From the NCBI RefSeq assembly GCF_006345805.1, contig NC_043023.1, forward strand, positions 3,162,001 through 3,226,000: 64,000 nucleotides of DNA. Direction: 5' to 3'. The notes below the pieces were generated by a model. That model made no database searches and had not been told where the DNA came from. It saw only the letters and a program-made list of their open reading frames with translations. This document shows positions 22,717-54,390 of this stretch, piece by piece. Both the position numbers and the translations under genes were made by a program. Numbering within the stretch: position 1 is the first letter of the stretch; each line of letters opens with the position of its first letter. This stretch comes from Octopus sinensis. Taxonomy: Eukaryota.

Positions 22717-23636
22717 TTAAAAGTATAACTGTAAAACATTATTTAAACGTAAGACATTTGCAGGACTTCACACATAAGATGTTTGTAATAGTATTACCAC
22801 GAAAACCAGATACAAAATCAAAAGTATAACCTTGAAGCAGCCATTTTTTTGCTACTTGTCGTTCACAAAGGTTTTTTGAACAATAGAGCATAAAGATCAG
22901 TGTTTCCTTCAAACTTCCATTTCAAATTTCAAAAGCTTATCCAAATGGGGAATATTTCAAGAGAAAAGGAAGATCAATTTACCAGCTGATGATCGGAAAT
23001 TAGTAACTCAGGGAAATGGAGCCTTTCAGTAATAATGCATGTGTGTGTGTGTTCTTTTATCTTTTACTTGTTTCCGTCATTAGAATGTGGCCATGCTGGG
23101 GCACTGTTTTACTCTTTACTCTTATACTTATTCCATTCATTTGACTGCAGCCATGCTGGAGCACCACCTTTAGTCGAGCAAATCGACCCTGGAACCTACT
23201 TTTGTAAGCCTAGTACTTATTCTATCGGTCTCGTTTGCTGAACCGCTAAGTTACAGGGACGTAAACACACCAGGATCAGTTGTCAAACGATGTTGTGGGG
23301 GAAGGGGGACAAACACACACAAGGGCTTCTTTCAGTTTCCATCCACCAAATCCACTCTCAAGGCTTTGGCTGGCCCGAGGCTATAGTAGAAACACTTGCC
23401 CAAGATGCCACCACGCAGTGGGACTGTTACTTATCTATACATAATAAAAGATCTTGTCTGTGTGTGTGTGTGCCTGTTCTGTTTTTATGTATTTATGCTG
23501 TGGAATATAAACATGACAAAATTAGGCCAGCAACGTTTCCTTTGAAACTTGAAGAAAAAAGTCTTGGGTACTACTTACACCTATTACACTATTTTTTTTT
23601 TATGACAGGGTCAAACGCTTTAGTTTAACCGAGCCA

Positions 23637-25350
23637 ACTGGGAAATACAAGCAAGAAAAGGAACTTAGTTTCTCTACATAAGCTGAAATATAAAATTAAA
23701 AAACTATATTTTTGAATATTTTACTGAAAATGTACTGAAATTTTTTTTAATTCCAAAAAGTTAAAAAGTTTACGAGTGGTTATATGGGGTACTTAAACGA
23801 GAATTCCACCAAAAATCAAATTTTCAAATTAATTTTTTTTAATAGCATAAATGTTTCTATGGGGATAAAAATATTCAAAAACAATACACGTTAGAACCAA
23901 CTGGGAAATACAAGCAAGAAAAGGAACTTAGTTTCTCTACGTAAGCTGAAATATTAAATTAAAAAACTATATTTTTGAACATTTTACTGAAAATGTACTG
24001 AAATTTTTTTTAATTCCAAAAAGTTAAAAAAGGTTATGAGTAGTTATATCGGCTACTTAAATGAGAATTCTAACAAAAATCAAGTTTTCAAACTAATTTT
24101 TATTAATAGCATGAATGTTTTTATGGGGATAAAAATATTGAAAAACAATACATATTAGAAGCAACTGGGAAATACAAGCAAGAAAAAGGAACTTAGTATC
24201 TCTACATAAGCTGAAATATAAAATTAAAAAACTGTATTTTTGAATATTTTACTAAAAATGTACTGAAATTTTTTTTAATTCCAAAAAGTTAAAAAGTTTA
24301 CGAGTGGTTATATGGGGTACTTAAACGAGAATTCCGCCAAAAATCAAAATTTCAAACTAATTTTTTTTAATAGCATAAATGTTTTTATGGGGATAAAAAT
24401 ACATAAAAACAATACATAGAAGAAACTGGGAAATACAAGCAAGAAAAGGAACTTAGTTTCTCTACATAAGCTGAAATATAAAATTAAAAAACTATATTTT
24501 TGAATATTTTACTGAAAATGTACTGAAATTTTTTTTAATTCCAAAAAGTTAAAAAGTTTACGAGTGGTTATATGGGGTACTTAAACGAGAATTCCACCAA
24601 AAATCAAATTTTCAAATTAATTTTTTTTAATAGCATAAATGTTTCTATGGGGATAAAAATATTCAAAAACAATACACGTTAGAACCAACTGGGAAATACA
24701 AGCAAGAAAAGGAACTTAGTTTCTCTACGTAAGCTGAAATATTAAATTAAAAAACTATATTTTTGAACATTTTACTGAAAATGTACTGAAATTTTTTTTA
24801 ATTCCAAAAAGTTTAAAAAGGTTATGAGTAGTTATATCGGCTACTTAAATGAGAATTCTAACAAAAATCAAGTTTTCAAACTAATTTTTATAATAGCATG
24901 AATGTTTTTATGGGGATAAAAATATTGAAAAACAATACATATTAGAAGCAACTGGGAAATACAAGCAAGAAAAAGGAACTTAGTATCTCTACATAAGCTG
25001 AAATATAAAATTAAAAAACTATATTTTTGAATATTTTACTAAAAATGTACTGAAATTTTTTTTAATTCCAAAAAGTTAAAAAGTTTACGAGTGGTTATAT
25101 GGGGTACTTAAACGAGAATTCCGCCAAAAATCAAAATTTCAAACTAATTTTTTTAATAGCATAAATGTTTTTATGGGGATAAAAATACATAAAAACAATA
25201 CATAGAAGAAACTGGGAAATACAAGCAAGAAAAGGAACTTAGTTTCTCTACATAAGCTGAAATATAAAATTAAAAAACTGTATTTTTGAATATTTTACTA
25301 AAAATGTACTGAGCTTTTTTTAATTCCAAAAACTTAAAAAAGGTTATTAG
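23637..25350. repeat. ~263-bp satellite, ~6.5 monomers, trimeric higher-order repeat
   Basis: actgggaaatacaagc at 23637, 23900, 24164, 24425, 24688, 24951, 25211; monomers 2 and 5, and 3 and 6, share diagnostic variants. Confidence 0.95.
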
Positions 25351-25607: not shown

Positions 25608-25735
25608 TTATACTGATAGGTAGTTCTGGAGATATTTGTGGCCGAAGAAAAGGACTCCGACAACGATTGCATTAAAGATGAATGCACCAAGAATCTTTCT
25701 GACAAGCTCAGGTGTACTTAGTCCACGTTTCGGAT
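25608..25735 (-). CDS. Transmembrane and short-tail exon: (N)PKRGLSTPELVRKILGAFIFNAIVVGVLFFGHKYLQNYLSV*
   Basis: ttttattgttcatcaattgcag|ATCCGAAAC...; phase-1 start fits the upstream exons; 18-aa hydrophobic run ILGAFIFNAIVVGVLFFG followed by HK; TAA at 25608-25610 (a weak GTATAA donor just before the stop cannot be excluded). Confidence 0.72.
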
Positions 25736-29206: not shown

Positions 29207-30364
29207 CTGTATTAGAAGGATCACATCATTATCATCTATTTTTTCTTCTACTGGTGTTTAATTTGTATACGTCCCTTCTTTATTTATTGTTAACCATGTA
29301 TACTTCCAATTTTTTTAATCCTTTCATATATATAAACCCCTCACACACCTTAAGTCTATCTTGGTATTGACATCCTTATCCTTTGCCCTTGTGGCAAATA
29401 AAAGAAATCATTATTGAGAGGCTGTGTGGTAAGTAAATTCCTTACAAACCACATGGTTCCGGGTTCATTCCCACTGCATGGCACCTTGGGCAAATGTCTT
29501 CTACTATAGCTTCGGGCTGACCAAAGTCTTGTGAGTGGATTTTGTTGACGGAAACTGAAAGAAGCCCAACGTATATATGTATATATATATATGTATGTGT
29601 GTGTATATCTTTGTGTGTCTGTGTTTGTCCCCACAACATCGCTTGACAACTGATGGTGGTGTGTTTACAACCCCGTAACTTAGCAGTTCGGCAAAAGAGA
29701 CCGATAGAATAAGTACTAGGCTTCCAAAGAATAAGTCCTGGGGTTGATTTGCTCGACTAAAGGCGGTGCTCCAGCATGGCCGTAGTCGAATAGCCGAAAG
29801 AAGTAAAAGAGTAAAAGAGTAACTATCAGCTGAGTCCATTGTGAAGATGGCCCCTCTACTTTACTTCAACCAGGAAAGGCAACCAGTTTTTTATATGCTT
29901 GAGGCCCAGGGCAAAGGGGATCATATAGTAGACATGGCTGAAAGGGCTAAAGACCAGCAGTTGTCTTTTTGTCAAAACCTTAATAATCTTTACAGGTTTC
30001 ACTTAAAGAGGAAAATCAGGGTGGAGAGGTAAGGGCTGCCTTGCAATCAGTTTGTTGAAAGGTGGGTGAGAGAGGTGAGCATTACCTGCGTGAATGGGCC
30101 TTCTCTTAGTGTATACCTGTATATTGGAGAGGAAAGACTGGGAGAGGGCATCCACCCTGGTGGTCACGGAGACCATGGATTTTGTGGGCTTTCTTTACGT
30201 GTAGCCCTTGTAAGTCCCTCCACTACCAGGGGTTTTACTTTGACTTTGTTTCATTTATTGTATGACTTTTTACATGCTAAAACCCACACTGTACCCTCCC
30301 AAATGTTTTCCTTTGTGTTCACCTTCAGTGGTTAATAAAGAAATTATAGGAATTATTTCCTTAC

Positions 30365-30613
30365 TGTTTATCTTCAAATGAATGTCTGCAGCTTTAAGGT
30401 TGGCATTAGGAAATTTCTGAGTCATACATCCCTTAGTTCCATCTGTGATCGAAAGATGCGAAGAATTTACAATATGTGTCACTTTATAGAAATGGCCATT
30501 TAAGCATGTCCTGTCACATTCATTTTTATACTTGTGGCACTCCCAAGTCACCGGTCGTTTCATTTTTGGTATTGTTATCGTCATTGTGACGTTTCCATTG
30601 AGCACAGCAATTC
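30365..30613 (-). CDS. 249-nt phase 1-1 exon encoding an 83-aa extracellular domain with 4 Cys, candidate Ig-like/beta-sandwich (IAVLNGNVTMTITIPKMKRPVTWECHKYKNECDRTCLNGHFYKVTHIVNSSHLSITDGTKGCMTQKFPNANLKAADIHLKIN)
   Basis: ttctttatttcag|GAATTGCT...AAGATAAACA|gtaagg; open frame (inside ORF 30270..30992), unique non-repeat sequence, G-N-V-T-M / V-T-W / S-x-L-x-I / I-x-L-x-I strand-like pattern. The fold assignment is inference; no canonical Ig B-strand Cys is present. Confidence 0.75.
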
Positions 30614-31063
30614 CTGAAATAAAGAAATCAGTTAAGAAGTTTTCTTCACAATCAAATGGTTCTGGGTTCAGTCCCACTGAACAGCACCTTGGGAAAGTGT
30701 CTTCTACTACAGCCTCAGCCTTGTGATTGGATTTTCTTGACGGAAATTGAAGGAAGCCCATTGTATGTATATGTGTGTATGTGTGTGTGAGTGTGTGCGT
30801 GTATGTATATATATATACATATATATACACACACCTGTGTGTTTCTAAGCCTTGTGAGTGGATTTGATAAGTGGAAACTGAAAGAAGCCCATTGTTTACA
30901 TATATATATATAAATATATATATGTATATATATAGATATAGATATAGGCGCAGGAGTGGCTGTGTGGTAAGTAACTTGCTTGCCAACCACATGATTCTGG
31001 GTTCAGTCCCACCTTGTGAGTGGATTTGGTAGATGGAAACTGAAAAAGCCTGTCGTGTATATG

Positions 31064-33984: not shown

Positions 33985-34180
33985 AAAATACTTAACACCC
34001 AGTCATAATGTTGTAAGAGGCAGCTTCTGCCTGGTCGGAATCCATGCTGGGTATCATTCAGCAAGTCATTTTCTTCATGGAACACAATTCGTTTCTTGTA
34101 GACTATTCAGTCTATGACTTTGCTGATGTGTGAGGTCATAGAGATAGGCCTATAATTTTTAGCACCTGCCCTGCTTCCTC
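33985..34180 (-). mobile_element. Degenerate CR1-type reverse transcriptase fragment
   Basis: Minus strand reads KNYRPISMTSHISKVID*IV...NDLLNDTQHGFRPGRSC with an internal stop. Confidence 0.8.
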
Positions 34181-34882
34181 CGGGGTCTGGGAAACCTGGA
34201 GGCTGCACCAGGCTCCAGTCATATCTGGCAGTGTTTCTACAGCTGGATGCCCTTCCTAAACGCCAACAACTCCATGAGTGTAGTGGATACCTTTTATGTG
34301 CCTGGCTAGGCTGGCAACGGCCACGATCGGTTGGTGGTTTTTATGTGCCACCGACATGGAAGCCAGTCAAGGCGGCGCTGGCATCGGCAACGTACGGATG
34401 GTGCTTTTTACGTGCCACCGGCACAGGTGCCATAAGTGATGTTGACATACTTCATAACCACAGTCCTATACAGAACGACTCATAATCGCAGCTACATGGT
34501 AACCAAATGAGTGGTCGTGCAATGAAGAAAAGCAGCCACTACATGTGGGAAAGTGGTGGGTGTTAGGAAGGCCATGAAGCAATAGAAGCTTTGCCAATGC
34601 ATGGAATGGAGTTCACCACAATGCTGTGGCTTGTTGGATCCATAGCAAAATTCAAGGCGTCAGTCCTATATGGAACCCCACAAACCATCGTGGCCCTGGT
34701 CGAAAACCACTGTTGCAGTGTATTCCCTGATGTGCAATTGTCAATAGTCAAATTCGAAATTTAAATAAATCAAAATCAAAAGATTGGCTAAAAGTTATGA
34801 GTTAAGGGAAAGAAATAGAAGACAGAACTGAAAAGGTAATGTCTAGTTAAAAAAGAGAGAAAAGGTTTGTTAATCGACTTAC

Positions 34883-34921
34883 TATTTTTCTTGATATCAT
34901 AATTATTTATATCTGTCGAAT
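34883..34921 (-). CDS. Repeat micro-exon 9 (39 nt): (D)STDINNYDIKKN
   Basis: tttttacag|ATTCGACAGATATAAATAATTATGATATCAAGAAAAATA|gtaagtcg. Confidence 0.78.
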
Positions 34922-36381
34922 CTGTAAAAAATGGAAACAAAAATTTTTGATTTTAGGATGATATAATTCAGAATAATGTGAATAAAAGAACATTAGATTT
35001 CACAGTAATCTGATTGCTAAAGGATTAAACCAGCCATATCTGTTTTATGTTTGAACTAGCCACATCCACCCTATCACACCTGCCCTACAATGTTATTCCA
35101 AAAATTCATCATCACATCATTGAAATCTCAAAGCTACAAGATATTCCATGATTAATTCAAACCAATGTGAATAAATAAGGATTACATTTCACTGAATAAT
35201 CTGAATGCTAAAGGGTCAATATTTTTGCTCTTGGAAATTAAAAGGGAAAATGTGCAATAGAGACCATCAAAAGAAATTAGACATCTTATTACACTTAGAC
35301 TAACGAGATTTAATTTAATGAGATTTATGTTTATTGGGACATGATTTCATCAGACATGGGTGTACGCCTGATTAAACTATGTCACTTTCCACTTACACCC
35401 ACCCCACTTATTTTAACCTCTCAGCACCTGGTATAAAGCCACCAACCTCAAAGCTATGCTCTTCGGTCGGGGCTTTTTCCTTCCGCTTCCTTTGCCTTTA
35501 TACTTACTTGGTGACCTTCTAGTGTTGGTGCCATGTAAAAAAGCCTCCAAGTAATCTGTAAAATGGTTGGCATTAAAAAGTAGGAATGAATTCTGCATGA
35601 AACATCACCATCATCGTTCAACATCCGTTTTCCATGCGAGCATGGGTTGGACGGATCAAAAGGGGTCTGGGAAGCCAGAAGGCTGCACCAGGCTCCAGTC
35701 TGATCTGGCAGTATTTCTACAGCTGGATGCCCTTCCTCAACGCCAACCACTCCGTGAGTGTAGTGCATACTTTTTATGTGCCAGGCGGGACTGGCAACAC
35801 CCACGATCGGTTGGTGGTTTTTACGTGCCACCGACATAGAAGCCAGTCAGGGCGGTGCTGGGATTGCCAACGTACAGCTGGTGCTTTTTATGTGCCACCG
35901 GCACAGGTGCGATATGTGATGATGACAAACATCATAACCACAGTCCTATTCAGAACGACTGTCATAATCACTGCTACATGGTAACCAAATGAGTGGTGGT
36001 GCAATGAAGAAAAGCAGCCACTACATGTGGTAAAGTGGTTGCTGTTTGGATGGCCATGAAGCAATAGAAGCCCTGCCAATGCATGGAATGCAGTTCACTA
36101 CAATGCTCTGGTGTGTTGGATCCATAGCAAAATTGAAGGTGTCAGTCCTATATGGACCCCCACAAACCATCATGACCCTGGTGAAAAACCACTGTTGCAG
36201 TATATTCTCTGATGTGCATTTTTGGCTCTTTATCCTTTCTCAATGGTCAAATTAAAATTTAAAGAAATCAAAAATCAAAAGATTAGCTAAAAGTTATGAG
36301 TTAAGGGAAAGAAATAGAAGACAGAACTGAAAAGGTGATGTCTAGTTTAAAAAGAGAGAAAAGGTTTGTTAATCCACTTAC

Positions 36382-36420
36382 CATTTTGGGTGCTATCATC
36401 AGGATATGTATTTGTCAAAC
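36382..36420 (-). CDS. Repeat micro-exon 8 (39 nt): (S)LTNTYPDDSTQN
   Basis: ttttgtacag|GTTTGACAAATACATATCCTGATGATAGCACCCAAAATG|gtaagtgg. Confidence 0.78.
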
Positions 36421-37860
36421 CTGTACAAAATGGAAACAAAAATTTTTTATTCTAAGATGATATAATTCAAAATAATTGGAATAAAAGAACATTATATTTC
36501 ACAGTAATCTGATTGCTAAAGGATTAAACCAGCCATATATGTTTTATGTTTGAACTAGCCACATCCACCCTCTCACACCTACCCTACAATGTTATTCCAA
36601 AAATTCATCAACACATCATTGAAATCTCAAAGCTACGAAATAATCCATAATTAATGTGTATAATTAAGGATTACATTTCACTGAATTATATGATTGCTAA
36701 AGGGTTAATATTTTTGCCCTTGGACATTAAAAGGGAAAATGTGCGATAGAGACCATCAAAAGAAATTAGACATCTTATTACACTTAGACTAACGAGTTTT
36801 AATTTAATGAGATGTATGTTTATTGGGACATGATTTCAACAGACATGGGTGTACGCCTGATTAAACCATGTCACTTTCCACTTACACCCACCCCACTTAT
36901 TTTAACCTCTCAGCACCTGGTATTAAGCCCTCACCCTCACTGCTGTGCTCTTCGGTCGGGGCTTACTCCTTCCGCTTCCTTTGTATTTATAGTTACTTTG
37001 CGACCTTCTATTGTTGGTGCCATGTAAAAAAGCCTCCAAGTACTCTGTAAAATGGTTGGCATTAAAAAGGAGGAATGAATTCTGCATGAAACATCATCAT
37101 CATCGTTTAACATCCGTTTTCCATGCTACCATGGGTTGGACGGATCGACTGGGGTCTGGGAAACCAGGAGGCTTCATCAGGCTCCAGTCTGATCTGGCAG
37201 TGTTTCTACAGCTGGATGCCCTTCCTCAACGCCAACCACTCCGTGAGTGTAGTGGATGCTTTTTATGTGCCAGGCGAGGCTGGCAACGGCCACGATCGGT
37301 TAGTGGTTTTTACATGCCACCGACATGGAAGCCAGTCAAGGCAGCGCTGGCATCGGCAACATACGGATGGTGCTTTTTACTTGCCACCGGCACAGGTGCC
37401 ATAAGTGATGATGACAAACATCATATTCAGAACAACTGTCATAATCGCAGCTACATGGAAACCAAATGAGTGGTGGTGCAATGAAGAAAAGCAGCCACTA
37501 CATGTGATAAAGTGGTGGGTGTTAGGAAGGCCATGAAGCAATAGAAGCCTTGCCAATGCATGGAATGGAGTTCACCACAATGCTCTGGTGTGTTGGATCC
37601 ATAGCAAAATTGAAGGTGTCAGTCCTATATGGACCCCCACAAACCATCATGACCCTGGTCTAAAACCACTGTTTGCCATGTATTCCCTGATGTGCATTTT
37701 TGGCTCTTTAGCCTTTCTCAAAGGTTAAATTAAAAATTAAAAGAAATCAAAAATCAAAAGATTGGCTAAAAGTTATGAGTTAAGGGAACGAAATAGAAGA
37801 CAGAAATGAAAAGGTAATGTCTAGTTTAAAAAGAGAGAAAAGGTTTGTTAATCCACTTAC

Positions 37861-37899
37861 TCTCTTGGGTTATTTTATATTCTTTTTTATCTGTCAAAT
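37861..37899 (-). CDS. Repeat micro-exon 7 (39 nt): (D)LTDKKEYKITQE
   Basis: acag|ATTTGACAGATAAAAAAGAATATAAAATAACCCAAGAGA|gtaagtgg. Confidence 0.78.
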
Positions 37900-39308
37900 C
37901 TGTAAAAAATGGAAACAAAAATTTTTGATTTTAAGATGATATAATTCAAAATAATATGAATAAAAGAACATTATATTTCACAGTAATCTGATTGCTGAAG
38001 GATTAAACCAGCCATATCCACCCTCTCACACCTACCCTACAATGTTATTCCGAAGATTCATCATCACATCATTGAATACTCAAAGCTACGAGATAATCCA
38101 TGATTAATTCAAACCAATGTGAATAAATAAGGATTACATTTCACAGAATTATCTGAATGCTAAAGGGTTAATATTTTTGCCCTTGGAAATTAAAAGGGAA
38201 AATGTGCAATAGAGACCATCAAAAGAAATTAGTGATCTTATTACACTTAGACTAACGAGTTTTAATTTAATGAGATTTATGTTTATTGGGACATGATTTC
38301 ATAAGACATGGGTGTACGCCTTATTAAACCATGTCACTTTCCACTTACACCCACCCCACTTCTTTTAACCTCTCAGCACCTGGTATAAAGCCACCACCCT
38401 CACTGCTATGCTCTTCGGTCGGGGCTTTTTCCTTCCGCTTCCTTTTACTTTATAGTTACTTGGCGACCTACTAGTGTTGGTGGCGAGTAAAAATGCCTCC
38501 AAGTACTCTGTAAAATGGTTGGCATTAAAAAGTAGGAATGAATTCTGCATGAAACGTCATCATCATCGTTTAATATCCGTTTTCCATGCTAGCATGGGTT
38601 GGACGGATCAACCAGGGTCTGGGAAACCAGGAGGCTGCACCAGGGTCCATTCTGATCTCGCAGTGTCTCTACAGCTTGATGCCCTTCCTAAACGCCAACC
38701 ACTCCATGAGTGAAGTAGATGCTTTTTATGTGCCAGGCGATGCTGGCAACGGCATCGATCGGTTGGTGGTTTTTATGTGCCACCGACATGGAAGCCAGTC
38801 AAGGCGGCACTGGCATCGCCTAGGTACGGATGGTGCTTTTTACGTGCCATATGTGATGATGACAAACATCATAACAACATTCCTATTCAGAACGACTTAT
38901 AATCGCAGCTACATGGTAGCCAATGAGTGGTAGTGCAATGAAGAAAAGCAGCCACTACATGTGGTAAAGCGGTGGGTGTTAGGAAGGCCATGAAGCAATA
39001 GAAGCCTTGCCAATGCATGGAATGGAGTTCACCACAATGCTGTGGCTTGTTGAATCCATAGCAAAATTGAAGGTGTCAGTCGTATATGAACCCCCACAAA
39101 CCATCATGACCCTGGTCGAAAACCACTGTTGCAGTACATTCCCTGATGCGCCTTTTTGGCTCTTTAGCCTTTCTCAAATTTTAAATTAAAAATTTAAAGA
39201 AATCAAAAATCAAAAGATTGGCTAAAACTTATGAGTGAAGGGAAAGAAATAGAAGACAGAACTGAAAAGTTAATGTCTAGGAGAGAAAGGGTTTGTTAAT
39301 CCACTTAC

Positions 39309-39347
39309 CACTTTTGGTGATATTTTCATCATTTTCATCTTCCAAAC
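39309..39347 (-). CDS. Repeat micro-exon 6 (39 nt): (G)LEDENDENITKS
   Basis: acag|GTTTGGAAGATGAAAATGATGAAAATATCACCAAAAGTG|gtaagtgg. Confidence 0.8.
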
Positions 39348-40797
39348 CTGTAAAAAATGGAAACAAAAATTATTGATTTTAAGATGATATAATTCAAAAT
39401 AATGTGAATAAAAGAACATTATATTTCACAGTAATCTGATTGCTAAAGGATTAATACAGCCGTATCTGTTTATGTTTGAACTAGCCACATCCACCCTCTC
39501 ACACCTACCCTACACTATTATTCCCAAAATTCATCATCACATCTTTGAAATCTCAAAGCTACGAGATAATCCATGATTAATTCAAACCAATTTGAATGAA
39601 TAAGGATTACATTTCACTGAATTATCTGAATGCTAAAGGGTCAATATTTTTGCCCTTGGAATTTAAAGGGGAAAATGTGCAATAAAGATCATCAAAAGAA
39701 ATTAGACATCTTATTACACTTAGACTAACGAGTTTTTATTTAATGAGATTTATGTTTATTGGGACATGATTTCATGAGACATGGGTGTACACCTGATTAA
39801 ACCATGTCACTTTCCACTTACACCCAGCCCACTTATTTTAACCTCTCAGCACCTGGTATAAAGCCACCACCCTCACTGCTATGCTCTTCGGTTGGGGCTT
39901 TTTCCTTCCTCTTCCTTTGTCTTTATAGTTATTGGCGACCTCCTAATATTGGTGCCATGTAAAAAAGCCTCCAAGTAATCTGTAAAATGGTTGGCATTAA
40001 AACGGAGGAATGAATTCTGCATGAAACATCATCATCATCGTTTAACATCCGTTTTCCATGCTTGCATTGGTTGGAAGGATCGACCGGGATCTGGGAAGCC
40101 AAGAGGCTGCACCAGGCTCCAGTCTGATCTGGCAGTGTTTCTACAGCTGAGTGCCTTTCCTAAACGCGAAACACACGTGACTGTAGTGGGTACTTTTTAT
40201 GTTGCAGGGGAGGCTGGCAACGGCCACGATCGGTTGGTGGTTTGTTCATGCAACCGACATGGAAGCCAGTCAAGGCGGCGCTGTCATCGGCAACGTACGG
40301 GTGGTTCTTTTTACGTCCCACCTGCACAGGTGCCATAAGTGATGATGATAAACATCATAACAACAATCATATTCAGAAAGACTGTCATAATCGCAGATAT
40401 ATGGTAACAAAATAAGTGGTGGTGCAATGAAGAAAAGCAGCCACTACATGTGATAAAGTGTTGGGTGTTAGGAAGGCCATGAAGCAATAGAAGCCTTGCC
40501 AATGCATGGAATGGAGTTCACCACAATGCTGTGGCTTGTTGGATCCATATCAAAATTGAAGGTGTCAGTCCTATATGGACACCCAAAAACCATCATGACC
40601 CTGGTCGAAAACCACTGCTGCAGTACGTTCCCTGATGTGCATTTTTGGCTCTTTAGCCTTTCTCAAAGGTTAAATTAAAAATTTAAAGAAATCGAAAATC
40701 AAAAGATTGGCCGAAAGTTATGAGTTAAGGGAAAGAAATAGAAGACAGAACTGAAAAGGTAATGTCTAGGAGAGAAACGGTTTGTTAATCCACTTAC

Positions 40798-40836
40798 CAC
40801 TATCGGTGATATTTTCATCATTTTCATCTTCCAAAT
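40798..40836 (-). CDS. Repeat micro-exon 5 (39 nt): (D)LEDENDENITDS
   Basis: acag|ATTTGGAAGATGAAAATGATGAAAATATCACCGATAGTG|gtaagtgg; identical to the exon at 44907. Confidence 0.8.
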
Positions 40837-42210
40837 CTGTAAAAATAGAAACAAATATTTTTGATTTTAAGATGATATTATTCAAAAAAACGTGAATAAA
40901 AGAACATTATATTTCACAGTAATCTGATTGCTAAAGGATTAAACCAGCCATATCTGTTTATGTTTGAACTAGCCACATCCAACCTCCCACACCTACCCTA
41001 CAATGTTATTCCAAAAATTCATCATTACATCAATGAAATCTCAAAGCTACGAAATAATCCATGATTAATTCAAACCAATGTGAATAAATAAGGATTAAAT
41101 TTCACTGAATTATCTGAATGCTAAAGGGTTAATGTTTTTGCTCTTGGAAATTAAAAGGGAAAATGTGCAATAGAGACCATCAAAAGAAATTAGACATCTT
41201 ATTACACTTAGACTAACGAGTTTTTATTTAATGAGATTTATGTTTATTGGGACATGATTTCATCAGACATGGGTGTACGCCTGATTAAACCATGTCACTT
41301 TCCACTTACACCCACCCCACTTATTTTAACCTCTCAGCACCTGGTATAAAGCCACCACCCTCACTGCTATGCTCTTCGGTTTGGGCTTTTTCCTTCCTCT
41401 TCCTTTGTCTTTATAGTTATTGGCGACCTCCTAATATTGGTGCCATGTAAAAAAGCCTCCAAGTAATCTGTAAAATGGTTGGCATTAAAACGGAGGAATG
41501 AATTCTGCATGAAACATCATCATCATCGTTTAACATCCGTTTTCCATGCTTGCATTGGTTGGACGGATCGACCGGGATCTGGGAAGCCAAGAGGCTGCAC
41601 CAGGCTCCAGTCTGATCTGGCAGTGTTTCTACAGCTGGATGCCCCTCCTAAACGCGAAACACACGTGACTGTAGTGGGTACTTTTTATGTTGCAGGGGAG
41701 GCTGGCAACGGCCACGATCGGTTGGTGGTTTGTTCATGCCACCGACATGGTAGCCAGTCAAGGCGGCGCTTACATCGTCTACGTACGGGTGGGTCTTTTT
41801 ACGCCCCACCTGCACAGGTGCCATAAGTGATGATGATAAACATCATAACAACAATCCTATTCAGAAAGACTGTCATAATCGCAGCTACATGGTAACCAAA
41901 TGAGTGGTGGTGCAATGAAGAAAAGCAGCCACTACATGTGATAAAGTGGTGGGTGTTTGGAAGGCCATGAAGCAATAGAAGCCTTGCCAATGCATGGAAT
42001 GGAGTTCACCACAATGCTCTGGTGTGTTGGATCCATAGCAAAATTGAATGTGTCAGTCCTATATGGACCCCCACAAACCATCATGACCCTGGTCTAAAAC
42101 CACTGTTTGCCATGTATTCCCTGATGTGCATTTTTGGCTCTTTAGCCTTTCTCAAAGGTTAAATTAAAAATTAAAAGAAATCAAAAATCAAAAGATTGGC
42201 TAAAAGTTAT

Positions 42211-42238
42211 ATATTATCACCATTTGTATTTGTCGATT
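42211..42238 (-). pseudogene. Disabled micro-exon copy (pseudo-exon)
   Basis: Acceptor and the first 28 nt (AATCGACAAATACAAATGGTGATAATAT) remain, but a deletion removes the exon 3' end, the GTAAG donor and adjacent intron (taaaagttat|atattatc junction versus sister units). Confidence 0.75.
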
Positions 42239-43416
42239 CTGTAAAAAATGGAAACAAAAATTTTTGATTTTAAGATGATATGATTCAAAATAATATGAAT
42301 AAAAGAACATTATATTTCACAGTAATCTGATTGCTGAAGGATTAAACCAGCCATATCTGTTTTACGTTTGAACTAGCCACATCCACCCTCTCACACCTAC
42401 CCTACAATGTTATTCCAAAGATTCATCATCACATCATTGAAAGCTCAAAGCTACGAGATAATCCATGATTAATTCAAACCAATGTGAATAAATAAGGATT
42501 ACATTTCACTGAATTATCTGAATGCTAAAGGGTTAATATTTTTGCCCTTGGAAATTAAAAGGGAAAATGTGCAATAGAGACCATCAAAAGAAATTAGACA
42601 TCTTAATACACATAGACAAACGAGTTTTAATTTAATGAGATGTATGTTTATTGGGACATGATTTCATCAGACATGGGTGTACGCCTGATTAAACCATGTC
42701 ACTTTCCACTTACACCCACCCCACTTATTTTAACCTCTCAGCACCTGGTATAAAGCCACCACCCTCACTGCTATGCTCTTCGGTCGGGGCTTTTTTCTTC
42801 CGCTTCCTTTTTCTTTATAGTTACTTGGCGACCTACTAGTGTTGGTGGCAAGTAAAAATGCCTCCAAGTACTCTGTAAAATGGTTGGCATTAAAATGTAG
42901 GAATGAATTCTGCATGAAACGTCATCATCATCGTTTAATATCCGTTTTCTATGCTAGCATGGGTTGGACGGATCAACCGGGGTCTGGGAAACCAGGAGGC
43001 TGCACCAGGGTCCATTCTGATCTCGCAGTGTCTCTACAGCTTGATGCCCTTCCTAAAGGGTGGTAAAGCGGTGGGTGTTTGGAAGGCCATGAAGCAATAG
43101 AAGCCTTGCCAATGCATGGAATGGAGTTCACCACAATGCTCTGGTGTGTTGGATCCATAGCAAAATTGAAGGTGTCAGTCCTATATGGACCCCCACAAAC
43201 CATCATGACCCTGGTCGAAAACCACTGTTTGCCATGTATTCCCTGATGTGCATTTTTGGCTCTTTAGCCTTTCTCAAAGGTTAAATTAAAAATTAAAAGA
43301 AATCAAAAATCAAAAGATTGGATAAAAGTTATGAGTTAAGGGAAAGAAATAAAAGACAGAAATAAAAAGGTAATGTCTAGTTTAAAAAGAGAGAAAAGGT
43401 TTGTTAATCCACTTAC

Positions 43417-43455
43417 CACTTTCGGTGATATTATCATCATTTGTATTTGTCGATT
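43417..43455 (-). CDS. Repeat micro-exon 4 (39 nt): (E)STNTNDDNITES
   Basis: tttttacag|AATCGACAAATACAAATGATGATAATATCACCGAAAGTG|gtaagtgg. Confidence 0.8.
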
Positions 43456-44906
43456 CTGTAAAAAATGGAAACAAAAATTTTTGATTTTCAGATGATATAA
43501 TTCAAAATAATATGAATAAAAGTACATTATATTTCACAGTAACCTGATTGCTGAAGGATTAATACAGCCGTATCTGTTTTATGTTTGAACTAGCCACATC
43601 CACCCTCTCACACCTACCCTACAATGTTATTCCAAAAATTCATCATCACATCTTTGAAATCTCAAAGCTACGAGATAATCCATGCTTAATTCAAACGAAT
43701 GTGAATAAATAAGGATTACATTTCACTGAATTATCTGAATGCTAAAGGGTCAGTATTTTTGCCCTTGGAAATTAAAAGGGAAAATGTGCAATAGAGACCA
43801 TCAAAAGAAATTAGACATCTTATTACACTTAGACTAACGAGTTTTAATTTAATGAGATTTATGTTTATTGGGACATGATTTCATGAGACATGTGTGTACG
43901 CCTGATTAAATATTGTCACTTTCCACTTACACCCACCCCACTTATTTTAACCTCTCAGCACCTGGTATAAAGCCACCAACCTCACTGCTATGCTCTTCGG
44001 TCGGGACTTTTTCCTTCCGCTTCATTTGTCTTTATAGTTATTGGCGACCTCGTAGTATTGGTGCCATGTAAAAAAGCCTCCAAGTACTCTGTAAAATGGT
44101 TGGCATTAAAAAGGAGGAATGAATTCTGCATGAAACATCATCATCATCGTTTAACATCCGTTTTCTATGCTTCCATTGGTTGGACGGATCGACCGGGATC
44201 TGGGAAGCCAGGAGGCTGCACCAGGCTCCAGTCTGATCTGGCAGTGTTTCTACAGCTGAGTGCCTTTCCTAAACGTGAAACACACGTGACTGTAGTGGGT
44301 ACTTTTTATGTGCCAGAGGAGGCTGGCAACGGCCACGATTGGTTGGTGGTTTTTTCATGCCACCGACATGGAAGCCAGTCAAGGCGGCGCTGGCATCAGC
44401 AACGTACGGATGGTGCTTTTTACGTGCAACCGGCACAGGTGCGATAAGTGATTATGACAAACATCATAACCACAATCCTATTCAGAAAGACTGTCATAAT
44501 CGCAGCTACATGGTAACCAAATAAGTGGTGGTGCAATGAAGAAAAGAAGCCACTGCATGAGGTAAAGTGATGGGTGTTAGGAAGGCCATGAAACAATAGA
44601 AGCCTTTCCAATACATGGAATGCAGTTCACCACAATGCTGTGGCTTGTTGGATCCATAGCAAACTTGAAGGTGTCAGTCCTATATGGACACCCAAAAACC
44701 ATCATGACCCCGGTCGAAAACCACTGCTGCAGTACATTCCCTGATGTGCATTTTTGGCTCTTTAGCCTTTCTCAAAGGTTAAATTAAAAATTTAAAGAGA
44801 TCGAAAATCAAAAGATTGGCCGAAAGTTATGAGTTAAGGGAAAGAAATGGAAGACAGAACTGAAAAGGTAATGTCTAGGAGAGAAAAGGTTTGTTAATCC
44901 ACTTAC

Positions 44907-44945
44907 CACTATCGGTGATATTTTCATCATTTTCATCTTCCAAAT
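44907..44945 (-). CDS. Repeat micro-exon 3 (39 nt): (D)LEDENDENITDS
   Basis: tttttacag|ATTTGGAAGATGAAAATGATGAAAATATCACCGATAGTG|gtaagtgg. Confidence 0.8.
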
Positions 44946-45390
44946 CTGTAAAAATAGAAACAAATTTTTTTGATTTTAAGATGATATTATTCAAAAAAAC
45001 GTGAATAAAAGAACATTATATTTCACAGTAATCTGATTGCTAAAGGATTAAACCAGCCATATCTGTTTATGTTTGAACTAGCCACATCCACCTGTCACAC
45101 CTACCCTACAATGTTATTCCAAAAATTCATCATCACATCAATGAAATCTCAAAGCTACGAAATAATCCATGATTAATTCAAACCAATGTGAATAAATAAG
45201 GATTAAATTTCACTGAATTATCTGAATGCTAAAGGGTTAATATTTTTGCCGTTGGAATTAAAAGGGAAAATGTGCAATAGAGACCATCAAAAGAAATTAG
45301 ACATCTTATTACACTTAGACTAACAAGTTTTAATTTAATGAGATTTATGTTTATTGGGACATGATTTCATCAGACATGGGTGTACGCCTG

Positions 45391-46988
45391 TGTAGCAATA
45401 TCGTCTCTCATTGCTATCTTCACTGTTTGAGAAGAGTATTAAGAATAACCTCGGTCGAGATTACAGACATCTTCGGCTAGTTCAACATTGTTGTAAACAC
45501 TAATTCGATTGGCTGACACGTTGGTCTCTACTACGTTCACACAGCTGGTTATCACTTGGCACGATTTGCCTCTGTTTATTTTCGCACCATAGTTCCAAGC
45601 AGCCAATCACAGCTTTCCATTTCTGAAATTCATTGGGAGCCATGTAAACCTTATAAAATAAGGTTTCGCAGACAAATATCCGTCTTAGGTTTCAAGTCCT
45701 TCTCAGGGCGAACCTCTGACCACACAGAGCATACTCGACCAAGTTCCAGTTCGAAAGACAGGCGACCACCATTAATACAAGATGTTACAGATACCTCTCA
45801 TACTGTTAGGGTGAAAATATCACCACGAAAGAACGGTTACAGGATATCTATAACTAGAGAAAAATAACTAAGCGACAGACATCGACAAACATCGCAGATT
45901 TAATTTGTACACAAGACAACTACAGATTCAGCTATAGCGGTTAGGTAAAATTCTCGCCACGGATAAAACGGCTACAGTTAACATATCTGGAAGTATGTTC
46001 ATATCAAGAGAAAGATAAACACAACGAGTGATTCAATTAATCTCAACTATGAGACGCAACATCTTGATATGGAACTCTTACGCTGTACCTTATAAACGGT
46101 AAATCAATTATCTGTTCTTGGGTTCTAGTTTCTTCTAAGAACTACCTTAAGCCATCTGTTATTACCTGTTGCCAGGCTGATACCAACAACATAAACTGTG
46201 AACCAAATTCCATCGTCATTTCACTGGTCAGTACCTTTTTACGCCTCATGAACACACAGACACAAAAACATGCTAACACTTACAAACTTCCAACATCAAG
46301 CATGATTGTAAAATATGTAAAATAAATAATTTATATATCTCAAAAAGAAATCTTGTTGTCATTCCACACTTATGTGTTTTGCCGCTGCATGTATTATATA
46401 GTCAGTAAATAAATTATTAAGAATGGGATCGCGTGCGACTGTGTCTCATACGATACGACTGTACATGATCCTTTTTTTATACTGGGTTTGGTTTTCGCTG
46501 CGTCTTCATCATATATTCTGCTTGGTTATTTTTCTCTAGTTATAGATATCCTGTAACCGTTCTTTCGTGGTGATATTATCACACTAACAGTATGAGAGGA
46601 ATCTGTAACATCTTGTATTAATGGTGGTTGCCTGCCTTTCGAAACTGGAACATGGTCGAGTATGCTCTCTGTGGTCAGAGGTTCGCCCTGAGAAGGACTT
46701 GAAACCTAAGACGGATATTTGTCTGCGAAACCTTATTTTATAAGGTTTACATGGCTCCCAATGAACTTCAGAAATGGAAAGCTGTGATTGGCTGCTTGGA
46801 ACTATGGCGCGAAAATAAATGGAGGCAAATCGCGCCAAGTGATAACCAGCGGTGCGAACGTAGTAGAGACCAACGTGTCAGCCAATCGAATTAGTGTTTA
46901 CAACAATGTTGAACTAGCCGAAGATGTTTGTAATCTCGACCAAGGTTATTCTTAATACTCTTCTCAAATGAGAGACGATATTGCTACA
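45391..46988. mobile_element. Non-autonomous long-TIR DNA transposon, Ginger-like
   Basis: TGTAG...CTACA termini; TIRs 45391-45873 and 46520-46988; 4-bp TSD CCTG (45387-45390 and 46989-46992) confirmed by the empty site gtacgcctgattaaa in sister units; no long internal ORF. Confidence 0.85.
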
Positions 46989-47996
46989 CCTGATTAAACC
47001 ATGTCACTTTCCACTTACACCCACCCCACTAATTTTAACCTCTCAGCACCTGGTATAAAGCCCTCACCCTCACTGCTGTGCTCATCGGTCGGGGCTTACT
47101 CCTTCCGCTTCCTTTGTATTTATAGTTACTTGGCGACCTACTAGGGTTCATGCCATGTAAAAAAGCCTCCGAGTAGTCTGTAAAATGTATGGTATTAAAA
47201 AGTAGGAATTAATTCTTCATGAAACATCATCATCATCGTTTAACATCCGTTTTCCATGCTAGCATGGGTTGGACGGATCGACCGGGGTCTGGGAAGCCAG
47301 GAGGCTGCACCAGGCTCCAGTCTGATCTCGCAGTGTTTCTACAGCTGGATGCCCTTCGTAAATGCCAACCACTCCGTGAGTATAGTGGATGCTTTTTATA
47401 TGCAAGGCGAGGCTGGCAACGGCCACGCTCGGTAAGTGGTTTTTACGTGCCACCGACATGGAAGCCAGTCAAGGTGGCACTGGCATCGGCCACGTACGGA
47501 TGGTTCTTTTTACGCGCCACCGGCACAGGTGCCATAACTGATGATGATAAACATCATAACAACAATCCTATTCCGAACGACTGTCATAATCGCAGCTACA
47601 TGGTAACCAAATAAGTGATGGTGCAATGAAGAAAAGCAGCCACTACATGTGGTAAAGTGGTGGGTGTTAGGAAGGCCATGAAGCAATAGAAGCCTTGCCG
47701 ATGCATGGAATGGAGTTCATCACAATGCTGTGGCTTGTTGGATCCATAGCAAAATTGAACGTGTCAATCCTATATAGACCCCCACAAACCCTCATGACGC
47801 TGGTCGAAAACCACTGTTGCAGTACATTCCCTGATGCGCCTTTTTGGCTCTTTAGCCTTTCTCAAATGTTAAATTAAAAATTTAAAGAAATCAAAAATCA
47901 AAAGATTGGCTAAAACTTATGAGTTAAGGGAAAGAAATAGAAGACAGAACTGAAAAGTTAATGTCTAGGAGAGAAAGGGTTTGTTAATCCACTTAC

Positions 47997-48035
47997 CACT
48001 TTCGGTGATAATTTCATCATTTTCATCTTCCAAAT
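47997..48035 (-). CDS. Repeat micro-exon 2 (39 nt): (H)LEDENDEIITES
   Basis: tttttacag|ATTTGGAAGATGAAAATGATGAAATTATCACCGAAAGTG|gtaagtgg. Confidence 0.8.
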
Positions 48036-49765
48036 CTGTAAAAATAGAAACAAATATTTTTGATTTTAAGATGATATTATTCAAAAAAACGTGAATAAAA
48101 GAACATCATATTTCACAGTAATCTGATCGCTAAAGGATTAAACCAGCCATATCTGTTTATGTTTGAACTAGCCACATCCAACCTCCCACACCTACCCTAC
48201 AATGTTATTCCAAAAATTCATCATCACATCAATGAAATCTCAAAGCTACGAAATAATCCATGCTTAATTCAAACGAATGTGAATAAATAAGGATTAAATT
48301 TCACTGAATAATCTGAATGCTAAAGGGTTAATGTTTTTGCTCTTGGAAATTAAAAGGGAAAATGTGCAATAGAGACCATCAAAAGAAATTAGACATCTTA
48401 TTACAGTTAGACTAACGAGTTTTAATTTAATGAGATTTATGTTTATTGGGACATGATTTCATCAGACATGGGTGTACGCCTGATTAAACCATGTCACTTT
48501 CCACTTACAAACACCCCACTTATTTTAACCTCTCAGCACCTGGTATAAAGCCACCACACTCACTGCTATGCTTTTCGGTTGGGGCTTTTTCCTTCCTCTT
48601 CCTTTGTCTTTATAGTTATTGGCGACCTACTAGTGTTGGTGCCATGTAAAAAAGCCTCCAAGTAATCTGTAAAATGGTTGGCATTAAAACGGAGGAATGA
48701 ATTCTGCATGAAACATCATCATCATCGTTTAACATCCGTTTTCCATGCTTGCATTGGTTGGACGGATCGACCGGGATCTGGGAAGCCAGGAGGCTGCACC
48801 AGGCTCCAGTCTGATCTGGCAGTGTTTCTACAGCTGGATGCCTTTCCTAAACGCGAAACACACGTGACTATAGTGGGTACTTTTTATGTTCCAGGGGAAG
48901 CTGGCAACGGCCACGATCGGTTGGTGGTTTGTTCATGCCACCGACATGGAAGCCAGTCAAGGCGATGCTGTCATCGGCAACGTACGGATGGTTCTTTTTA
49001 CGTGCCACCGGCACAGGTGCCATTACTGATTATGATAAACATCATAACAACAATCCTATTCAGAAAGACTGTCATAATCGCAGCTACATGGTAACCAAAT
49101 AAGTGATGGTGCAATGAAGAAAAGCAGCCGCTGCATGAGGTAAAGTGTTGGGTGTTAGGAAGGCCAGGGGAAGCTGGCAACGGCCATGATCGGTTGGTGG
49201 TTTGTTCATGCCACCGACATGGAAGCCAGTCAAGGCGATGCTGTCATCGGCAACGTACAGATGGTGCTTCTTACGTGCCACTGGCACAGGTGCCACAACT
49301 GATGATGATAAACATCATAACTACAATCCTATTCAGAATGACTGTCATGATAGCAGCTACATGGTAACCAAATGAGTGGTGGTGCAATGAAGAAAAGCAG
49401 CCGCTGCATGAGGTAAAGTGTTGGGTGTTAGGAAGGCCATGAAACAATAGAAGCCTTGCCAATGCATGGAATGCAGTTCACCACAATGCTGTGGCTTGTT
49501 GGATCCATAGCAAACTTGAAGGTGTCAGTCCTATATGGACCCCCAAAAACCATCATGACCCTGGTCGAAAACCACTGTTGCAGTACATTCCCTGATGTGC
49601 ATTTTTGGCTCTTTAGCCTTTCTCAAAGTTTAAATTAAAAATTAAAAGAAATCAAAAATCAAAAGATTGGATAAAAGTTATGAGTTAAGAGAAAGAAATA
49701 GAAGACAGAAATAAAAAGGTAATGTCTAGTTTAAAAAGAGAGAAAAGGTTTGTTAATCCACTTAC

Positions 49766-49804
49766 GACTTTGGGTGATATTATCATCATTTGTATTTGTC
49801 GATT
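49766..49804 (-). CDS. Repeat micro-exon 1 (39 nt): (Q)STNTNDDNITQS
   Basis: tttttacag|AATCGACAAATACAAATGATGATAATATCACCCAAAGTC|gtaagtgg; 39 nt, phase 1-1, no stop. Confidence 0.8.
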
Positions 49805-50924
49805 CTGTAAAAAATGGAAACAAAAATTTTTGATTTTAAGATGATATAATTCAAAATAATATGAATAAAAGAACATTATATTTCACAGTAACCTGATTGC
49901 TGAAGGATTAATACAGCCATATCTGTTTTATGTTTGAACTAGCCACATCCACCCTCTCACACCTACCCTTCAATGTCAGTCTAAAAATAAACAATCACAT
50001 CATCAAAATGTCAAAACTACAAGATAATGAATGATTAATTCAAAAACCAGGAGGGAGGAAGTAAGTAGCTCAATGTGGGTATGTTGACACAAGGAGGGGG
50101 TAAGAAGAGATAGCCAGATTAGGAAGATGGAGGTGGGGTGATCAGGGTATTGAAAGAAGTGGAAGTGGAAAATTGGGAGATGAGTGGGAGGTGTGAGAGG
50201 AAAAGTATTTTCAAGGGTAGTCATTGTTGGGTATGACAATAGATGTTAATAGTTAGGGATGGTGGCACTATAGAACTAAGGGATATTGGAAAGGTGGAAG
50301 ATGGGAGAGGCGAGTATTAAAAGGAGAGAAAAGGTCCAGTTACAGATGCTAGTTGTGTAGCAAAGGGGAAATCTTAAAAATGAAGATGGGTCAGTTGCAC
50401 ATCAAAGTACCGAGGTATGTAGACATGTATGAGTAAATAGATTACATAGATTTAACATAATAGGCAAACAAGGAATAGGTTCTGTGTTTACATGAGAGGA
50501 TTACATCTGAAAATTTATTAAATAAATAGGAGTTGTGGTTTTGAAAGATAGTGGATGATTCTCATACACAGTGCCAAGATTAGTGTTGTATGGGGTGGGT
50601 GGGTGTGAGAGCTCACTGTTAATTAACCATGGTAGAATATAGGGAATGTTTCGGGACCTGAGGTTCTGTATATAATTTGTTAATGAGGTAGATAATTTAT
50701 AAGTTGGATTGTGGTGGAAAATCAAAAATGTTCCAAAATTTTCTTCCATAAAATGCATCATTTTTAAAGCTCTGCTAAAAACAAAATTGGAAAAATCCCT
50801 GTCCAAACAAAGAAAATCCTCCTTATGTGAGAGACCAATTCCAGACCTCTGTGCACTTGAGTAAGTTTGCCTTAACAAAAATAAGTTATGGAAAAAATGA
50901 AATAAAATAAAAAATAAAACTTAC

Positions 50925-50982
50925 GGAAATATGTTATAGAGAAATGGAGGAGCACCTTTAATAAGTTCGAAATACCCATGAT
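50925..50982 (-). CDS. Putative first coding exon (ATG at 50979) encoding the signal-peptide-like MGISNLLKVLLHFSITYF; ends in phase 1
   Basis: Minus strand reads cttattttttcag|ATCATGGGTATT...ACATATTTCC|gtaagt: canonical acceptor and donor, ATG 3 nt into the exon, hydrophobic N-terminus, and a phase-1 end matching the micro-exons. A second frame is also open but ends in phase 2. Confidence 0.65.
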
Positions 50983-53733: not shown

Positions 53734-53810
53734 CTTGTAGTTGTGGCTTGATGCAATAGGAAGTTTCAAATACCAACTGGGAAATCCAAACAATGAAAAG
53801 GACTTAGTTT
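53734..53810 (-). other. Candidate 5'-UTR exon of the minus-strand gene
   Basis: Strong acceptor cttttatttttatctttcag (alternative tttcccag giving a 43-nt exon) and donor AAG|gtatgt; contains no ATG. Confidence 0.4.
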
Positions 53811-54390
53811 CTGAAAGATAAAAATAAAAGAAACTATTTTAAAAAATTTTACTTAAAATGTACTGAATTTTTTTTAAATTCCAAAAGTAAAAAGGTTATG
53901 AGTGGTTATATGGGGTACTTAAACGAGAATTCCGCCAAAAATCAAATTTTAAAACTAAATGTTTTTATGGGGATAAAAATATTCAAAAACAATACACGTT
54001 AGAACCATGTGGGAAATACAAGCAAGAAAAGGAACTTAGTTTCTCTACGTATGCTGAAATACAAAATTAAAAAACTATATTTTTGAACATTTTACTGAAA
54101 AATGTACTGAATTTTTTTTTAATTCCAAAATGTTAAAAAAGGTTATTAGTAGTTATATGGGGTACTTAAACGAGAATCCCGCCAAAAATCAAATTTTCAA
54201 ACTAATCTTTTTTAATAGCATAAATGTTTTTATGGGGATAAAAATATTCAAAAACAATACATGTTTGAACCATGTGGGAAATAAAAGCCAGAAAAGCAAC
54301 TTAGTTTCTCTACAGAAGCTGAAATATAAAATTAAAAAACTATATTTTTGAATATTTTACTGAAAATGTATTGAATTTTTTAAAAAAAAG
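53770..54390. repeat. Second block (~2.4 monomers) of the same ~263-bp satellite
   Basis: Same motifs (ggggtacttaaacgagaat, ggggataaaaatattcaaaaacaatac); an inverted piece also lies at 55611-55760. Confidence 0.9.

Follow-up and report, generated by a model that had tools for sequence, protein, structure and literature searches.

The window analysed here, 64,000 nucleotides of the Octopus sinensis genome (C27:3162001-3226000), carries on its minus strand a gene for a predicted membrane protein in which a 39-nt micro-exon has been multiplied, together with its intron, into a tandem array. We hold it modestly probable that the array is the domain-start exon of an octopod protein family, copied with its intron and diversified, and that the copies are probably spliced in variable in-frame combinations to give the protein a variable N-terminal tip.

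Nine intact micro-exons lie at the sites listed in a preliminary description of this DNA, which gives the low end of each exon, and they encode the nine 13-amino-acid peptides given there in one open phase-1 frame (Table 1). Each is preceded by a pyrimidine tract and TACAG, spans 39 nt and is followed by GTAAGT. The splice dinucleotides are identical across all nine, and not one indel separates the exons. The micro-exons of the array fall into five diverged sequence types. There are ten units, the tenth copy being truncated and overlooked at the time, and their spacing is irregular. The introns measure 1120, 1730, 3051, 1451, 2580, 1450, 1409, 1440, 1460 and 4269 nt, and three features account for the irregularity within the array (1409-3051 nt): the truncated unit, an internal duplication of 276 bp and an inverted-repeat element of 1.6 kb. 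The element, which we take to resemble Ginger-type transposon derivatives, has many dispersed copies on many contigs at 80-92% identity.

Table 1. Features of the array gene, in positions of the window
Feature	Position	Strand	Remarks
Tandem array, ten intron plus micro-exon cassettes	34180..50044	-	about 1.5 kb each, 85-95% identical; self-BLAST
Micro-exon 1 (STNT type)	49766..49804	-	ancestral upstream intron retained
Micro-exon 2 (LEDE type)	47997..48035	-	
Micro-exon 3 (LEDE type)	44907..44945	-	
Micro-exon 4 (STNT type)	43417..43455	-	
Tenth copy, truncated (STNT type)	42211..42238	-	acceptor intact; last 11 exon nt and donor deleted
Micro-exon 5 (LEDE type)	40798..40836	-	same sequence as micro-exon 3
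Micro-exon 6 (LEDE type)	39309..39347	-	mosaic flanks
Micro-exon 7	37861..37899	-	family Y-x-I strand motif retained
Micro-exon 8	36382..36420	-	sole copy within RefSeq XP_029652262.2; without Y7 and I9
Micro-exon 9	34883..34921	-	final copy ahead of domain exon; Y-D-I as in C9316 single-copy paralog
Inverted-repeat element, 1.6 kb	45391..46988	.	terminal inverted repeats of about 480 bp, TG..CA ends, 4-bp target duplication; inserted in one unit
Putative founding crossover block, in last unit	35084..35093	-	identical switch point in nine internal units
Dispersed repeat, about 180 bp	35037..35221	-	bears the putative crossover; about 84% identity, many contigs
High-copy interspersed repeat, about 310 bp	35603..35911	-	in each unit; already in paralog introns
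Likely 5' non-coding exon	53734..53810	-	tblastn homology to first exon of paralog models; AG/GT read from sequence
Predicted signal-peptide exon	50925..50982	-	ATG at 50979, 18 aa, phase-1 end; homologous exon in paralogs
249-nt phase-1 exon, body of predicted Ig-fold domain	30365..30613	-	
Last coding exon	25608..25735	-	predicted transmembrane helix, short tail, stop

The splice pattern is rare outside this locus. On its minus strand the window contains the motif YAG-N39-GTRAG 11 times (nine in the array, two elsewhere), and on its plus strand once. A tighter version is matched exactly at 12 places in the 2.72-Gb genome, which all fall within C27:3.20-3.31 Mb, in the array gene and neighbouring family genes; the reversed control is matched nowhere. 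None of the 55 forward junctions possible among 11 exons creates a stop codon, so that copies of 39 nt in phase 1 can be skipped in frame.

Comparison with a neighbour gene 100 kb away, where one micro-exon lies between two domain exons, points to how the array arose. Positions 1-1339 of the unit match the downstream intron of this single-copy neighbour (92%), positions 1221-1460 match its upstream intron (90%), and the two introns have in common a 119-bp direct repeat of 75% identity. As judged from 56 diagnostic columns, each of the nine internal units changes from downstream-type to upstream-type sequence at one and the same 10-nt block, with exceptions limited to one unit that has a small deletion past the block and a few columns ahead of it. 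The first copy and the single copy of a paralog on contig C9316 are upstream-type throughout these columns. The block lies within a dispersed repeat, sought in the genome by scoring 40 of 4215 first-look candidates. A common switch point of this kind is what a single unequal crossover between two copies of a repeat would leave behind, and we regard repeat-mediated unequal crossover as a well-supported origin for the array, which a single event between the two flanking repeat copies would likely have founded. The mosaic flanks suggest that it then grew by unequal crossing-over or conversion. The locus would thus be an unusually clean record of the birth of a micro-exon array, from one repeat-mediated crossover through growth to divergence.

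The mapped breakpoint bears out the earlier proposal that real micro-exons were duplicated as whole intron-plus-exon cassettes. The companion proposal, that the cassettes consist mostly of transposable-element fragments, was overstated: genome-wide repeats account for about 310 nt plus 180 nt of the 1460-nt intron, or about one third of the unit, and most of the remaining intron matches the homologous intron in paralogs. Set against 204 kb of surroundings, 57% of the unit intron has at least one match and 29% has at least three.

Extra micro-exon copies recur in four family genes, the array gene included. In the neighbour gene, at least four copies form a separate array next to an assembly gap, with a unit of 2.15 kb and a junction of another kind. 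A gene on contig C12305 carries a 1.2-kb duplication that gives it two copies, against one in each of two sister genes, and LOC115225372 (C27:19.03 Mb) has an older pair. Assembly gaps nearby, one of them immediately upstream of the neighbour's array, and the many unplaced paralog contigs raise the question of whether haplotypes or reads were stacked in tandem by the assembler. We consider such an artefact highly improbable, since the flanks differ by 2.6-10.9% in every pair of copies, units carry private insertions and deletions, the array contains no N, and a common breakpoint is a biological signature.

What was multiplied is a normal part of a protein family. The flanking exons proposed earlier at 50925-50982 and 30365-30613 stand, as signal-peptide and domain exons, the former judged from its hydrophobicity and from the family layout. 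When annotated paralogs are mapped to DNA, they show a signal exon, one or more pairs of a 39-nt exon and a 249-nt exon, and a transmembrane exon. A 39-nt exon precedes each mapped domain exon, and the micro-exon is therefore the normal domain start of the family; the 13-amino-acid unit is accordingly not the new peptide repeat for which it had been taken. Of 88 candidates scored in the genome, 57 match the 249-nt domain exon, many of them clustered on C27. A family profile finds 32 proteins, every one named Octopus or Argonauta, and 35 when run against 1.84 billion representative proteins. Ten proteins looked up from the profile searches added a bacterial repeat protein and one protein from abalone (E 4e-12), and several weak profile matches lie outside these ten. 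Named octopod members are annotated as uncharacterised or hypothetical, except for one zinc-finger-like model. We describe the group as an uncharacterised, octopod-enriched family of predicted immunoglobulin (Ig)-fold type-I membrane proteins.

The fold assignment comes from structure models. An AlphaFold2 model of paralog P0014 (predicted local distance difference test score, pLDDT, 81.4) assigns the Y-x-I-T-Q of the micro-exon to the first strand, whereas a second micro-exon copy upstream of it is disordered in the model. With this model, the best Foldseek matches are a single-chain variable fragment and titin (E 2e-8), and VIA gives Z scores of 9.5-10.8 against V/I-set Ig domains, with a root-mean-square deviation of 2.6-3.1 Å over about 90 residues. 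The domain is thus predicted to be Ig-like, a two-sheet beta-sandwich resembling solved Ig domains. Sequence searches are sparser: the 82-aa domain exon has no Pfam family at E<=10, a PDB sequence search gave no matches, a precomputed I-set assignment exists for four of the 32 relatives, and V-set clusters in the ESM Atlas score 0.83 or lower, which is a lead. Canonical V/I-set domains of the Ig superfamily have a disulfide between the B and F strands and a C-strand tryptophan. That cysteine pair is missing from the family alignment, in which W23, C32, C36 and C62 are invariant and C25 nearly so, with no cysteine in the first 24 columns. In predicted fold, in layout (signal, one or more domains, transmembrane helix, short tail), in phase-1 exons and in gene clusters, the family is like CD2/CD58, CEACAM, CD200R and CD8, but it shares only 6-17% identity with them and encodes strand A on a separate micro-exon. 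By itself, a model-based match to Ig receptors gives no function. The layout and the selection described below suggest a role in recognition at the cell surface, immune or self/non-self.

The strongest signal in the array, also overlooked in the preliminary description, is accelerated non-synonymous divergence of the exons. Over 36 pairs, the exons differ by 27.4% and 550 nt of flank by 7.6%, a 3.6-fold excess; the proportions of non-synonymous and synonymous differences (pN and pS) are 0.30 and 0.06. Variable columns number 28 of 39 in the exon and 167 of 644 in the intron (p=1e-8), or 26 of 39 and 246 of 1389 among the five full-length units, and none of 568 intron windows of 39 columns reaches the diversity of the exon. 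The downstream flank was trimmed to 420 nt here, 600 nt having entered a non-homologous stretch of the first unit (pi up to 0.26). Minimal changes amount to at least 26.5 non-synonymous against 1.5 synonymous, which departs from the intron rate at p=1.5e-6, and a test on four hand-chosen disjoint pairs, with copy 40798 excluded, gives p values of 3e-6, 9e-8, 0.028 and 1e-4. Codon models fitted to 8 sequences of 12 codons, with recombination present, depart from omega=1 at p=0.0015 (F1X4, whose likelihood was still rising at omega 32) and p=0.0016 (F3X4). The domain exon itself, compared with that of the neighbour, has a pN of 0.20 and a pS of 0.077 (p=0.04).

Several results pull the other way. 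A comparison of synonymous sites only, of which each copy has just 6.3, gives p=0.11, and the codon test with empirical frequencies gives p=0.084. The tree assumption of the codon test is broken because the flanks are mosaic. Copies of the same type show no excess, 44907 and 40798 having no differences at all. The excess in the neighbour's array is modest (8 of 39 against 40 of 569 columns, p=0.008) and is lost with six copies (p=0.37), and eight domain exons of the 16-Mb cluster show no departure from omega=1 (p=0.32). Taken together, the exon divergence points to diversifying selection, which is likely to have driven the micro-exon copies apart; the evidence is strong against the introns and moderate in the codon tests.

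Much of the same divergence might be expected of a decaying or hypermutable gene that uses one or two copies and leaves the rest mostly idle, to be altered by conversion patches, GAT/AAT-rich slippage or relaxed constraint. One copy has already been destroyed, the flanks are mosaic, conserved residues have been lost from the domain, the 93%-identical C9316 paralog has a broken domain exon, and the stop-free status of the copies is weak evidence alone, with a probability of about 0.31 by chance given 28 changes. Relaxation, however, predicts equal divergence in exon and intron, whereas the observed excess is confined to 39 nt. Since pS equals intron divergence, homogenisation of the introns around older exons would not by itself explain the excess. 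With the exons free of indels and their splice dinucleotides invariant, we judge idle copies to be distinctly unlikely.

Our preferred reading also requires that copies be joined in varying combinations. RefSeq models of two paralogs, P0062 and P0023, splice two tandem micro-exon copies together, which is evidence at the level of gene models. (Contig C10494 was considered as the locus of P0062 and rejected, as it carries another paralog.) We expect that the last included copy would form strand A, that additional upstream copies would be disordered, as predicted for P0014, and that the extension would be a membrane-distal, acidic, glycosylatable and variable tip: 35 of the 108 residues in the nine concatenated copies are D or E, and five of the nine copies have an N-x-T sequon.

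Sequence data covering the junctions are few. In a search of sequencing runs, 20 of 21 rows contain no more than 0.30 of the query words; no RNA holder is on record, and RNA status is a guess, as it is for the contigs from four runs of three studies that were compared over 30250-30720, around the domain exon. An X1 contig, from a paralog, departs from the genome at the predicted acceptor and continues into family micro-exon letters. The X5 and X6 contigs depart at the same acceptor, with 33 further letters, and one X2 contig matches 30365-30524 with two differences (160 nt) and stops at the exon end. A SINE-like (short interspersed nuclear element) flank near the domain exon dominates the contig matches.

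The annotation, as the preliminary description had claimed, misses most copies: the domain exon matches part of XP_029652262.2 (LOC115225442, Octopus sinensis) at 100% identity, and this model includes one of the nine micro-exons. Its path runs from an exon 95 kb away to 36382 and then directly to the domain exon, skipping 34883. Among the array copies, 36382 is the closest to the exons of the neighbour gene (6-7 differences), and it is modelled as disordered, so XP_029652262.2 may be a mapping chimera. Current annotation thus captures one of nine exons and may fuse neighbouring genes.

Taken at face value, that path weighs against our preferred reading, and it is not alone in doing so. The X5 and X6 contigs match through a G at 30614, whereas the final letter of copy 34883 is A, which hints weakly that the domain exon is not always spliced to the last copy. 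No joint between two 39-nt exons of the array gene was seen in the contigs over the domain-exon stretch. The array gene's domain is without near-invariant family residues such as W65, and the structure model that holds it is poorer than that of the paralog (pLDDT 64.7). Two protein searches were likewise negative, although neither is evidence of absence: no protein with several micro-exon copies of the array gene was among the matches of 145-2000 aa, and no multi-copy candidate was found at 45-144 aa.

One alternative is that each transcript takes a single copy as strand A, as in Dscam, to yield nine receptor variants. In Dscam, the N-terminal portion of an Ig domain comes from the variable exons, and exclusive clusters of this type involve pairing between docking-site and selector RNA. 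Such a choice would suit the presence of exactly one copy in the RefSeq model, the structural place of the micro-exon in the predicted domain, the retention of I9 in eight of nine copies and the diversification of the copies at the protein level. However, nothing in sterics or frame would prevent copies from being joined (introns above 1.4 kb, exons of 3n nt, no stops), and tandem copies are joined in the two paralog models. When one array unit was compared with the unique flanking introns for perfect complementarity, the longest matches were 10-12 nt (E 0.06-1), with no docking- or selector-type complement above 12 nt. The strand aromatic, present in 16 of 18 aligned family members, is kept in only two of nine copies, 37861 and 34883, the second of which is the last copy; these retention counts were read from the family alignment (A3). 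Two copies are identical, and the annotated one is modelled as disordered. We therefore think exclusive choice unlikely.

We also regard constitutive inclusion as unlikely, in which all nine copies would always be used and length would vary only between alleles. The predicted protein of about 260 aa would then have a 104-aa acidic extension. All nine copies have strong, near-identical splice sites, the last retains the ancestral Y-D-I, and the two-copy paralog models contain both of their copies, as constant inclusion would predict. Against this, the RefSeq model leaves out 34883, and the number of repeats per transcript varies widely in the closest precedent, the SmPoMuc genes of Schistosoma mansoni, according to the accessible part of their description (PMC2576457).

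Variable in-frame combination of the copies, the reading that we prefer, would set an SmPoMuc- or schistosome micro-exon gene (MEG)-like cassette in an Ig receptor, and the array resembles this combination most without belonging to the SmPoMuc, MEG or Dscam families. The comparisons that follow draw on the accessible parts of the cited papers. In SmPoMuc, a signal peptide is followed by a 27-nt exon repeated with its introns in units of about 1 kb, up to 20 of them, and the introns are more alike than the exons (PMC2576457). The octopus array likewise repeats a short exon head-to-tail with introns more alike than exons, and consecutive copies are joined, at the level of gene models, in the two paralogs. 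SmPoMuc, however, is a secreted mucin with three repeat types and microsatellites between units, for which the authors invoke purifying selection on exons (PMC2576457), whereas what the array repeats is a structural piece of a predicted Ig domain in a membrane protein. Its copies fall into five diverged types, their pN greatly exceeds their pS, and the repeat-mediated breakpoint has been mapped.

Schistosome MEGs have small symmetric exons, in-frame skipping, raised dN/dS, recent family expansion and transposable-element-rich loci; they are composed mostly of micro-exons and are described as flatworm-restricted (PMC4350168). The array has symmetric micro-exons that would allow in-frame skipping, raised dN/dS, a recently expanded family and a transposable-element-rich locus in common with them, but its micro-exons are recent paralogous cassettes ahead of a 249-nt domain exon and a transmembrane exon, and of some 780 coding nt they make up no more than 351 rather than the greater part. 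Arthropod Dscam uses tandemly duplicated alternative exons of a surface receptor (PMC13428168). The array is similar in placing tandem variable exons at the N-terminal part of an Ig-fold surface protein domain, whereas those of Dscam are much longer and exclude one another, and no long pairing element was found in the one array unit compared. No sequence search of the array gene or family turned up homology to Dscam. In the spider flagelliform silk gene and Coccidioides SOWgp, protein repeats arise from exon-plus-intron units with homogenised introns (cited in PMC2576457); those are structural or adhesive repeats in concerted evolution, unlike the diversifying Ig-domain tips proposed here.

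The cassette architecture therefore has precedents in SmPoMuc and MEGs, and an octopod receptor family with such a selection signal was not found in print. Within the open-licence literature (titles and abstract openings, with subscription papers and supplements uncovered), we found no description of the family, the array or its selection signal, nor of a diversified Ig-type receptor system in cephalopods. A 2026 review of immune diversification names Dscam, FREPs and VCBPs and, in its accessible part, none for cephalopods (PMC13428168). No paper was found for six LOC identifiers, which supplementary tables of octopus transcriptome papers, outside the search, could list. The sc-SPLASH paper (PMC11703226) was considered as a description of the family and, in its accessible part, is not about it. 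The locus offers a concrete candidate, in a family that is uncharacterised, expanded and evolving fast and for which the proposed splicing can be tested. A broader proposal, possible but doubtful, is that dozens of Ig-fold proteins make up an octopod receptor diversifier based on splicing, with the first-strand micro-exon repeatedly multiplied and positively selected and cells choosing or combining copies so as to present a wide range of receptor tips; in immune or self/non-self recognition, this would be what Dscam or MEG diversity is elsewhere, in a cephalopod form.

Other family loci vary in layout. At C27:3268812-3275919 (+), a third family gene has a 5' exon, a signal exon, one micro-exon and a transmembrane exon, with no domain exon between. 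The C9316 locus (23770-44487), a paralog or deeply diverged haplotype that is 93% identical upstream, has a single micro-exon and a domain exon with an internal deletion, and its signal exon differs from that of the array gene at three sites, all amino-acid-changing. At C27:16.29-16.49 Mb, RefSeq isoforms of LOC115225115/116 splice signal, micro- and domain exons over tens of kb of neighbouring paralogs; these isoforms would be either mapping chimeras or exon sharing like that of clustered protocadherins. A 63-bp tandem repeat of about 2.7 kb lies immediately past a family domain exon at C12305:24418-27151.

Within the window, a 263-bp unit repeated 6.5 times at 23635-25340, just beyond the stop codon, is homologous to the family 5' non-coding exon region, with further homology at 54004-54365; it is possibly a promoter/first-exon array. 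At 30418-30419, the X1, X5 and X6 contigs show the family tryptophan codon and the X2 contig the glutamine of the window, a mix that probably reflects amino-acid differences among alleles or orthologs. A 922-bp copy of 29578-30497, 95% identical, lies at C14:50127482-50128401 and includes the domain exon's 3' half, in which it has the family tryptophan that is absent from the array gene. Over 30250-30364, an X6 contig extends from the domain exon into the next intron. Read-through tails also terminate several of the family's models, and secreted isoforms may result.

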